From an uncultured archaeon (GTDB lineage: Archaea; Asgardarchaeota; Jordiarchaeia; Jordiarchaeales; Jordiarchaeaceae): 19,699 nucleotides of DNA. The stretch lies in assembly GCA_964510585.1 (NCBI GenBank), contig CAZECW010000056.1, positions 1 through 19,699 on the forward strand, in the 5' to 3' direction. Of this stretch, positions 8,654 through 11,367 are shown in pieces; positions within the stretch are counted from its first letter, which is position 1; each line of letters opens with the position of its first letter. The position numbers and the translations under genes are program-made. The notes below the pieces were generated by a model. It did not search any database and was not told where the DNA came from. It saw only the letters and a list, made by a program, of their open reading frames with translations.

Positions 8654-8808
8654 GATGTTTATGCTTCAATAGTTTTAATCATTTGTTGTAAAACAATATA
8701 TTTTATTAAGTAAAGGGGTAAGATTATTTTTCATTACCGAATACTACAAAAAATTAATAAAAGATTTGTATTAATTGACATATTACACTGTAACTGGAGG
8801 TTATAAGT

Positions 8809-11240
8809 ATGAATCCCAGTGAAAAAAGGTTTATCTTATGGTTCGAAGAAGTTGGAAAAAGCGATGTGACTGCAGTAGGAGGAAAATCCGCTAACTTGGG
8901 CGAATTAACAACAAAAGCCAAAGTTCCAGTTCCACCAGGTTTTTCAGTTACTACCTATGCCTATAAAAAGTTCCTCGAGGATGCAAAAATAGAAACTAAG
9001 ATATTTAACATGCTGGAAAAAACCGATATTAAAGACTTCCAGCAACTCGAAGATACATCAAACAAAATTAGGCGCCTTATTGAATCTACACCAATACCTA
9101 AGGACATTTCAGAGGCAATAATGGAGAGTTACGATGAACTAGGTAAAAGAGTAAAACAAAGAGAGCCATTAGTGGCTGTCAGGTCGAGCGCCTCCGCAGA
9201 GGATAAAGTAATGGGCTAACCGTTCTTCCTCTATTGCCAGGCGCATCTTTTGCTGGACAACAGGAAACTTATCTAAATGTAAACAGGGAAGGTTTGCTTG
9301 AAGCAGTAAGAAAATGTTGGAGTAGCTTATTCACAAAGAGAGCCATAACTTATAGGCAAGAAAAGGGATTCAGACACCAAGATGTGCTAATTAGCGTAGC
9401 TGTCCAACTTATGGTCGATGCGAAATCTGCGGGAGTCATGTTTACACTACACCCAACAACTGGAGATGCTACAAAAATAATGATAGAAGCCAGTTGGGGA
9501 TTAGGAGAAGCTGTCGTAAGCGGAGCAGTAACACCAGACACATACTTAGTGGACAAATCCACTCTAGAAATAATAGAAAAACATGTTGTACCCAAAAAAG
9601 TAGAGTACAAACTGAATCCTAAGACTGGAAAAACCGAACACTTAGAAGTCCCCCCAGAAAGACAAAATATCCCCGCTCTGACCGATGATGAAATAAAAAA
9701 GGTTGCGTGGTATGGAAAACAAATAGAAAACCACTATAAAACACCACAAGACATAGAATGGGCAGTAGATAAGAGTGGAGAAATATACATATTACAATCC
9801 AGACCAGAAACAGTACATGGTTTAAAACTGGAAACTATGGAAACAACAAAGGCCGTCCCACAGGAAACCACCACGGAACGCGAAATAATACTCAGGGGAC
9901 TAGGGGTATCGCCGGGAATAGCGTCAGGCCCCGTGAAGGTTATTAAAGATGTTAGTGGCATAAGGCAAGTAGAGGAAGGAGACATTTTAGTAACAAAAAT
10001 GACCACGCCCGACTGGGTTCCCGCTATGAAAAAAGCGGCAGCCATTGTAACTGATGAAGGAGGATACACTTGCCACGCGGCGATAGTATCCCGAGAACTA
10101 GGGACTCCCTGCATAGTGGGAACCGAAAAGGGAACGGCTGTCTTGGCGAATGAGGGGCAAGTGACCGTTGATGGTGGAAGAGGAATAGTTTACCGGGGAG
10201 TTTTAGAAAGGGCAAAAGAGGAATTTGTAGCAACAAATACTGGCATGGGAATAATACCTACTGCCACAAAAATCTACGTGAACCTATCGATACCAGAAAT
10301 AGCAGACAGAGTTGCGAAACAGACGCAGGCAGATGGAGTTGGATTACTCAGAGCAGAACACTTAATGATAACCATTGGAAAACACCCAAGAAAACTTATT
10401 GAAGAGGGCGGAGATCAAGAAATGATAGACAAATTTGCAGAAGGTATAAGAAAAGTTGCAGAAGCCTTCAGCCCAGGTCCAGTGGTGTACCGTTTTCTAG
10501 ACTTTAAACCTGACGAATTCTTAGCTTTAGAAGGGGGAAGAGAATATGAAGCCGGCCACATTGGCCCAAATCCAATGATTGGTTTTAGAGGCCAATTCCG
10601 ATACGTAAAGGAGCCAGATGTTTTTAGGCTAGAGTGCAGGGCGGTGAAAAAGGTTAGAGAAACATATGGATTAAAAAATCTTTGGGTAATGCTCCCCTTT
10701 GTTCAAAGTATAGAAGTTTTTAGAATTGCAAAGCAGATTATGAAAGAAGAAGGACTGGATCCAGAAATAGACCCCGACTTCCAGATCTGGATTATGGTGG
10801 AAGTCCCAAGCAGTGTACTTTTGATAGACAAATTCTGCCAAGAGGGGATAAATGGGGTTAGCTTTGGGACAAATGATTTAACGATGTTAATTCTGGGTGT
10901 AGACCGTAATGATGCTAGCGTTCAGGAGTTGTACGATGAGCGTAACTTGGCAGTTCTACGTGCAATTGCATATACTATTAAAATATGTAAAAAATATGGG
11001 GTGACCACTTCTATCTGTGGGCAGGCGCCAAGCGTTTATCCAGACTATTTAGAGTTTCTAGTTCGTATGGGTGCCACCAGCATTAGCGTAAACCCTGATG
11101 CAGTCACATTTACCCGTCAAATGGTCGCCAAGATTGAGCGAAAATTACTATTGGAAAATGTCACAGGGCCTACACGTATACGTGTGGGTAAGAACTTTAT
11201 GGATGATGTAGAATTCTGGAAACTGGTGGAAGACAAGTGA
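8809..11240 (+). CDS. ppsA: Phosphoenolpyruvate synthase (pyruvate,water dikinase); join(8809..9204,9234..11240), 800 aa after intron removal
   Basis: GGKSANLGEL, PVPPGF, AVRSSASAED|LPGASFAGQQETYLN, DIEWA, ILQSRPET, phosphocarrier GGYTCHAAIVSRELG, GVGLLRAE, MVEVPS, SFGTNDLT and ICGQAPS. SD GGAGGT at 8796-8801. Confidence 0.95.
9205..9233 (+). other. Candidate 29-nt BHB-type mRNA intron in ppsA
   Basis: Central helix GAGG (9199-9202) / CCTC (9228-9231). 3-nt bulges AT|A (9203-9205) and TA|T (9232-9234). Exon-exon helix GCA/TGC plus GCGCCT/AGGCGC. Intron stem AAG-AATGG / CCGTT-CTT around a GCTAA loop. Removal restores the frame. Confidence 0.88.
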
Positions 11241-11367
11241 CTACCTAGTAAACCATATATTTCCAGATGAAACCTTTAAACATGAAAGAGTAAAAAATTG
11301 GCTCAACATACCAATTAACTAGTTACCTATAAAACCAATAAATCTAACTTTATTGGCAAACGTGTAT

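Follow-up and report, generated by a model that had tools for sequence, protein, structure and literature searches.

The window analyzed here is a stretch of 19,699 nucleotides from an uncultured archaeon (contig CAZECW010000056.1 of assembly GCA_964510585.1), and the locus in question is its gene for phosphoenolpyruvate synthase, ppsA. Two open reading frames (ORFs) lie there on the same strand, at 8809-9219 (136 aa) and at 9234-11240 (668 aa). The first one stops at a TAA at 9217-9219 and the second one opens with a TTG. Profile positions 3-114 of the Pfam domain PPDK_N fall in the first ORF and positions 114-317 in the second, where this domain is followed by PEP-utilizers and then by PEP-utilizers_C. 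The split of PPDK_N at profile position 114 indicates a single phosphoenolpyruvate synthase gene, interrupted at one place within a domain. When the 29 nt at 9205-9233 are removed, a frame of 2403 nt is obtained that encodes 800 aa and reads LVAVRSSASAED/LPGASFAGQQETY, the slash marking the junction. Around this point the joined PpsA reads VRSSASAED/LPGASFAGQQETY, or SASAED/LPGASFAGQQ in its short form, and across AED/LPG the Pfam domain runs through profile position 114 without a break. The parts of the gene are as follows.

8796-8800, + strand: Shine-Dalgarno-like GGAGG, 8 nt 5' of the ppsA start codon (direct reading)
8809-9204, + strand: ppsA exon 1, 132 codons, ending with GCA GAG GAT = A-E-D (ORF, PPDK_N 3-114)
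9234-11240, + strand: ppsA exon 2, 668 codons plus stop, starting with TTG CCA GGC = L-P-G (ORF, Pfam)

The host is a Jordarchaeia/Freyarchaeia Asgard archaeon represented by a 3.78-Mb assembly of 217 contigs, 96% complete, and the DNA runs with this stretch come from hot springs. No tRNA was detected in the window by ARAGORN. The 29 nt with their flanks occur once in the genome, and thus are not a repeated mobile element.

Together with the codons on both sides, the insert can fold into a bulge-helix-bulge (BHB) at 9188-9244, the elements of which are listed below.

9188-9193 and 9196-9198, + strand: outer (exon-exon) helix, 5' strand, in the S-A-S-A codons
9199-9202, + strand: central 4-bp helix, 5' strand GAGG, exonic; GAGG is invariant in 14/14 intron versions
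9203-9205, + strand: 5' bulge AUA, predicted cut at 9204/9205
9205-9233, + strand: putative BHB intron, 29 nt (homology junction and fold)
9206-9208/9225-9227 and 9210-9214/9220-9224, + strand: intron hairpin, U9209 bulged
9215-9219, + strand: hairpin loop with the in-frame TAA 9217-9219 (fold)
9228-9231, + strand: central helix, 3' strand CCUC, intronic, pairing with 9199-9202
9232-9234, + strand: 3' bulge UAU, predicted cut at 9233/9234
9235-9237 and 9239-9244, + strand: outer helix, 3' strand, in the L-P-G-A codons

The outer helix comprises 3+6 bp (9196-9198/9235-9237 and 9188-9193/9239-9244) and the inner helix 3+5 bp, and every listed pair is Watson-Crick or G-U. The fold of 9180-9252 has a minimum free energy (MFE) of -26.0 kcal/mol (z = -2.87), a value equalled by 1 of 200 shuffles. 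With the junction fixed by protein homology, 434 of 200,000 shuffled introns matched the observed central and inner pairing. The original prediction had described a 29-nt insert that splits the AED motif, shifts the frame and carries a TAA in its loop, and every coordinate that it gave for these features checks. It had also placed the cuts after the second base of each bulge, which is the rule between the second and third bulge base known from cbf5 (PMC2738675), and had called this the only junction giving Asp-Leu and 800 aa. We agree for the canonical register: with this cut rule, it is the sole option that removes 29 nt and restores Asp-Leu.

Alignment of ppsA from relatives, proposed in the original prediction, showed the same boundary, a variable insert and a fixed geometry. 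By genome search, the C-terminal open frame was found to measure 671-685 aa both in congeners (G001, G003, G004, G005) and in the sister family within the order (G006, G007, G009, G010), as against 798-831 aa for other families in this phylum. In every examined relative of the order, ppsA is interrupted at the same codon boundary. Junctions were read in loci from four collections, leaving out L011 (G010), where the insert begins after GAGGAC and is followed by N bases, and this gave 14 distinct versions of the insert (four of 29 nt, one of 28, four of 30, two of 20, one of 19 and two of 18). All four central pairs are present in 13 of these 14 versions, the 3-nt bulges in all of them, and the inner stems range from 3 to 9 bp; the outer helix has 3-7 bp, again in 13 of the 14. 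The inner stems are unrelated in sequence among the groups of 18, 19, 20 and 28-30 nt, and in the sister family other, unrelated stems stand in place of the intron stem. Also, a compensatory A-U to G-C change was observed between L007 (GAGAC/GUCUC) and L270 (GAGGC/GCCUC). When each intron was shuffled separately with its exons kept, the observed pairing was reached in 0 to 2112 of 200,000 shuffles, depending on the sequence.

No insert was found in 36 other ppsA sequences (Baldr-, Odin-, Bathy- and Hydrothermarchaeota, bacteria). The sequences bearing the intron read SASAED at the junction, whereas those without it read SATAED. The exon-exon duplex of six sequences that bear the intron lies between -14.0 and -21.8 kcal/mol, versus a mean of -7.9 and a best value of -13.7 kcal/mol in 29 tested intron-less homologues. 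Exon-exon pairing is thus strong solely where the intron is present, and the coding sequence of ppsA has evidently been shaped to form the exon half of the BHB.

The enzymes that such an intron would need are encoded in the host genome. PF01974 matches it twice (108 and 80 bits), in both cases in a frame of 206 codons, which gives two EndA paralogues: the C157 product (G000:C157:27009-27626) retains the Tyr/His/Lys pattern, and the C126 product (C126:19588-20205) is without the catalytic His. As judged from their residues, this pair of a putative catalytic and a putative structural paralogue fits the (alpha-beta)2 type of EndA reported for Asgard archaea (PMC5829648). RtcB is encoded as well, with one PF01139 match of 578 bits that contains a TGA. 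In this lineage, 92-95% of the tRNA genes have introns, many of them at non-canonical positions (PMC11291895). ARAGORN returned just 9 tRNA genes for the host genome (5 without the intron option), versus 34 for the 1.4-Mb genome G011, and this low count agrees with heavy non-canonical interruption of tRNA genes.

Thus, the ppsA pre-mRNA very probably contains a genuine BHB intron at positions 9205-9233. Its cleavage and ligation, as well as their timing relative to translation, are what we infer from the motif, the covariation and the machinery. In the transcript, coding bases 9188-9198 would pair with coding bases 9235-9244 and GAGG (9199-9202) with CCUC (9228-9231), and the intron would fold into its own hairpin, which would leave two 3-nt bulges around a 4-bp helix. 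The splicing endonuclease, probably a heterotetramer of the catalytic and structural EndA paralogues, would cut after 9204 and after 9233, and RtcB would join the exons and probably circularise the 29-mer. The spliced mRNA would be translated into the 800-aa phosphoenolpyruvate synthase, and the unspliced mRNA would yield at most a 136-aa fragment ending at the TAA of the intron loop. The predicted junction of the spliced RNA reads GCAGAGGAT/TTGCCAGGC, the predicted joint of the circular intron reads CCTCTA/AAAGTAATGG, and SSASAEDLPGASFAGQQETYLNVNR is the predicted tryptic peptide spanning the junction.

RNA records were sought among the assembled contigs of metatranscriptome X21, in which the contigs of this lineage are about 93-95% identical to the window. 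One of them, of 253 nt, covers 8952-9204: it stops, without a loose end, precisely where the 5' cut is predicted, and DNA contigs of other runs continue past 9204. A graph assembler would be expected to end a contig in this way where two RNA forms diverge, so that this contig gives a weak hint of splicing, from one study. Two kinds of candidates were rejected. X21 contigs whose loose end falls before 9234 carry SATAED and come from intron-less ppsA of other organisms, and a joint from 8904 to 9235 belongs to another organism's homologue. In wetland metatranscriptomes for the closed Freyarchaeia genome, 5-9% of the words were matched.

Two other observations in X21 concern exon 1. A contig of 209 nt (record 25) begins with 24 letters that match the 3' end of exon 1, followed by the ppsA 5' leader from 8797; the joint falls within letters common to both sides (8797-8801 to 9198-9202), with a match up to GCA and then the shared GAGG. 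It may represent exon-1 RNA in circular or tandem form, an artefact of template switching at the 4 nt of GAGG homology, or a strain rearrangement. Word depths were 36 and 70 over exon 1 (8797-9204) and 9-19 over exon 2 (9316-11127), contig depths being crude measures by which parts of one gene should not be ranked. If real, the excess of exon 1 would be in keeping with a build-up of 5' parts that were cleaved or ended prematurely.

In protein records, all Frey/Jord PpsA entries come in two pieces (P0003-P0015, P0123-P0143), namely a 'phosphoenolpyruvate synthase' of 610-671 aa and a 'PEP/pyruvate-binding domain-containing protein' of 130-165 aa with C-terminal residues encoded by the intron. 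This annotation of PpsA as two proteins is a systematic error for the lineage.

Several points weigh against an intron at this place. In the MFE fold the register is slid by one pair, A9203-U9227 (probability 0.65) replacing A9206-U9227 (0.33), which gives a central helix of 5 bp; the canonical register, at -24.4 kcal/mol, is a near-optimal alternative. The full BHB of the original prediction therefore holds for all the pairs that it named, with the qualification that its geometry is not that of the MFE register. Two versions depart from the canonical form, since L005/L188 has 3/4 central pairs (an A-C mismatch) and L273 is without the first outer pair (outer helix 0). Archaeal ribosomes may trail the polymerase, and would then unwind the exon strand of the motif. 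Also, rtcB itself carries an insert (listed below), so that the supply of ligase would depend on its own product. Among the X21 contigs listed, none of this lineage crosses 9205-9315, and neither a ligated junction nor a circular intron was seen. Lastly, among 5.8 billion predicted proteins there was no full-length PpsA of the Frey/Jord type above 76% identity, and a search for exon 1 running into LPGASF found none; since this protein collection is mostly derived from DNA, the missing spliced-type PpsA weighs little.

Among the explanations that dispense with an intron, a split gene survives best, and we still hold it to be improbable. Here the 136-aa piece and the 668-aa piece, the latter started at TTG 9234, would be translated apart and, without RNA splicing, would assemble to an active enzyme. 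It is true that two genes are annotated here by gene callers in all genomes of the lineage, and that most versions have TTG, which could serve as a start, as the junction codon. However, L006/L268 has CTG at the junction, with no ATG, GTG or TTG upstream in frame, and no Shine-Dalgarno motif was read ahead of 9234, whereas GGAGG precedes the true ppsA start; an independent restart at this TTG, which the original prediction had doubted, is indeed unlikely. In addition, a single Pfam domain is interrupted at a conserved motif, and two separate proteins leave unexplained the retention of a BHB that has an exon-exon helix and covarying stems.

Recoding is less probable still. Ribosomes would then bypass the insert or shift frame over it, as in gene 60 of phage T4, where a short gap in the coding sequence, containing a stop and a hairpin, is bypassed. 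The short untranslated gap, early stop and hairpin of ppsA bear a superficial likeness to such an element, but bypass in gene 60 needs matched take-off and landing codons on the ribosome, and these are absent here: the take-off codon is GAT or GAC and the last intron codon CTA, CCA, CAG, CTC, CCC or CAA, without any landing match. Inserts of 18, 19, 20, 28, 29 and 30 nt would demand different events in all three phases, that is, two different frame shifts plus the bypass of an in-frame stop in the 18- and 30-nt versions, and no slippery run is present. We give equally little credit to a decaying pseudogene, in which an old insertion would have inactivated ppsA in the lineage. The frame is disrupted and in-frame stops occur in all versions, yet both exons are open and under purifying selection (ratio of nonsynonymous to synonymous substitution rates, dN/dS, of 0.08-0.21 in exon 1 and 0.05-0.09 in exon 2 within the genus), amino-acid identity of PpsA is 60-77% across families, where synonymous sites are saturated, no further stops interrupt the 668 codons in any relative, and the Pfam domains are complete. 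An artefact of assembly or sequencing, for which nothing speaks beyond the short length of the insert, has next to no probability, as the insert is found in more than 14 independent assemblies (NCBI, JGI, ENA, Logan), including one closed, long-read-validated genome (PMC11291895), and as DNA contigs of an independent study span 8700-11296 gap-free through the 29 nt.

The putative ppsA intron has counterparts elsewhere in the host genome. A homology-free scan for BHBs that fuse two ORFs gave 24,354 candidates and was uninformative alone; hence a homology census was made, in which the 2,440 ORFs of the closed 1.418-Mb genome G011, from another family, were compared with the host genome by tblastn, gene names being Pfam matches on the G011 orthologues. 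At least 14 conserved genes of the host genome, ppsA included, were found with inserts of 25-33 nt. The canonical geometry lies exactly at the peptide-restoring junction in 13 of the 14 according to the scanner, and was found by hand in eL42. The census inserts interrupt conserved motifs; their sequences are unique, and the first base is A in 10 of 13. For the scan proposed in the original prediction, which was to look for other split ORFs that BHB excision would repair, the 13 more genes listed here are candidates (a BHB was found at the homology junction unless stated otherwise).

G000:C58:3762-3791, + strand: rtcB insert, 30 nt, in-frame with a TGA, between LPD and AHQGYGFPIGG
G000:C18:27688-27718, - strand: putative cbf5 intron, 31 nt, outer helix 5 bp, inner helix 7 bp (split Cbf5 match)
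C180:1146-1173: insert in the gene of a 437-aa protein without Pfam family
C187:67020-67051: insert in pcm
C4:20568-20597: insert in ahcY
C16:2275-2299: insert in the gene of a 111-aa protein without Pfam family
C18:16244-16273, - strand: insert in gatE
C4:22120-22149: insert in tyrS (class-Ib aminoacyl-tRNA synthetase)
C3:18313-18339, - strand: insert in the gene of an HflX-like GTPase
C20:52144-52173: insert in the Alba gene
C181:4156-4188, - strand: insert in the gene of an aconitase-family large subunit
C72:43796-43828, - strand: insert in the POR alpha gene
C73 about 5690-5722, - strand: insert in the eL42 gene, BHB found by hand

The rtcB insert has the 4-bp central helix and the 3-nt bulges, but its outer and inner helices are of 2 bp each. 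The cbf5 intron falls between the first and second base in the codon that specifies the catalytic Asp (GTL/D/PKV), and the crenarchaeal cbf5 intron occupies the same position in this codon (PMC2738675). Judging from position, the two would be either of ancient origin or the product of repeated gain at a single site. The census also bears on the claim that a central carbon-metabolism enzyme is made to depend on the tRNA-splicing machinery: the comparative data support a BHB intron in ppsA, but since at least 13 other conserved genes carry inserts, ppsA is no special case and no specific link between carbon metabolism and splicing is indicated.

Genome G011, intended as an intron-free reference, itself has a few such inserts (loci L117-L187). 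Stop-bearing inserts were noted there in a gatA-like amidase (10 codons) and in a protein with SGWPKP/GNIHR (9 codons), and a small number of splits of 28-43 nt were frame-shifted. The census thus errs on the conservative side and lacks a clean negative control, and mini-introns of mRNA may not be confined to Jordarchaeia. In two conserved genes of the host genome, at C63:14166-14476 (-) and C97:16863-17178 (-), far longer extra segments of about 282 and 293 nt lie between collinear matches to one G011 protein; long introns, inserted domains or other elements may account for them.

Among protein-coding genes, the pre-mRNA intron of crenarchaeal cbf5 is the closest known case, and is said to go back to work by Watanabe in 2002 and Yoshinari in 2006. 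Its hosts are Desulfurococcales and Sulfolobales (Yokobori 2009, PMC2738675). Both are short, protein-free introns (16-44 bp in cbf5, 18-30 nt in ppsA) bounded by a BHB cut between the second and third bulge base, both disrupt a conserved motif of a catalytic region, and both occur in hosts with hetero-oligomeric EndA. However, cbf5 encodes an RNA-modification enzyme of Crenarchaeota whereas ppsA encodes a central-metabolism enzyme of an Asgard archaeon; the ppsA motif is a strict hBHBh' whereas most cbf5 motifs are called unconventional (PMC2738675); and splicing is supported by cDNA in cbf5 whereas the ppsA intron is known from sequence. Compared with the BHB introns of archaeal tRNA and rRNA, the motif, the size range and the predicted enzymes EndA and RtcB are the same, but the host is an mRNA, and codons make up the exonic half of the motif, with the result that coding and pairing constraints overlap. 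In the tRNA genes of Freyarchaeia and Atabeyarchaeia, BHB introns are exceptionally frequent (PMC11291895). The 2009 paper on cbf5 stated that no other archaeal pre-mRNA splicing was confirmed (PMC2738675), a 2025 paper on these endonucleases cites the cbf5 work alone, and our full-text literature searches found no report of a BHB intron for ppsA or for protein-coding genes of Asgard archaea. The intron in ppsA is of the cbf5-type class, and is part of a lineage-wide set far larger than that in searchable papers.

In eukaryotes, HAC1 and XBP1 offer a more distant parallel, with a short intron removed by a protein endonuclease, a change of frame and, in animals, ligation by RtcB. There, IRE1 takes the place of EndA/TSEN as the endonuclease, it acts on a pair of stem-loops and not on a BHB, and splicing is regulated by stress.

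It is possible, but in our view rather unlikely, that splicing of mRNA by tRNA-splicing enzymes is routine in Jordarchaeia and constitutes a control layer, with ppsA and at least 13 core genes gated by EndA/RtcB capacity. The gated genes would include tyrS, gatE, eL42, Alba, POR alpha, ahcY and cbf5, and the rtcB intron would close a feedback loop. The excess of exon-1 RNA and the contig that joins the end of exon 1 to the 5' leader could then be traces of cleaved or circularised intermediates. If true, a prokaryote closely related to eukaryotes would offer a precedent for regulated splicing of protein-coding transcripts in cells that lack a nucleus.

For more than 20 years, cbf5 has been the sole archaeal protein gene with documented BHB splicing in searchable papers. 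What is new here is a well-supported BHB intron in a gene of central metabolism, conserved across an Asgard order and one of at least 14 in this one genome, the gene of the RNA ligase included. As public annotation splits or truncates such genes, metabolic reconstructions and protein families are affected for this lineage. A relative of eukaryotes that has no nucleus apparently must splice many mRNAs before translation. Thus, the coexistence of splicing with coupled translation, a key issue for hypotheses on how the nucleus arose, becomes testable.

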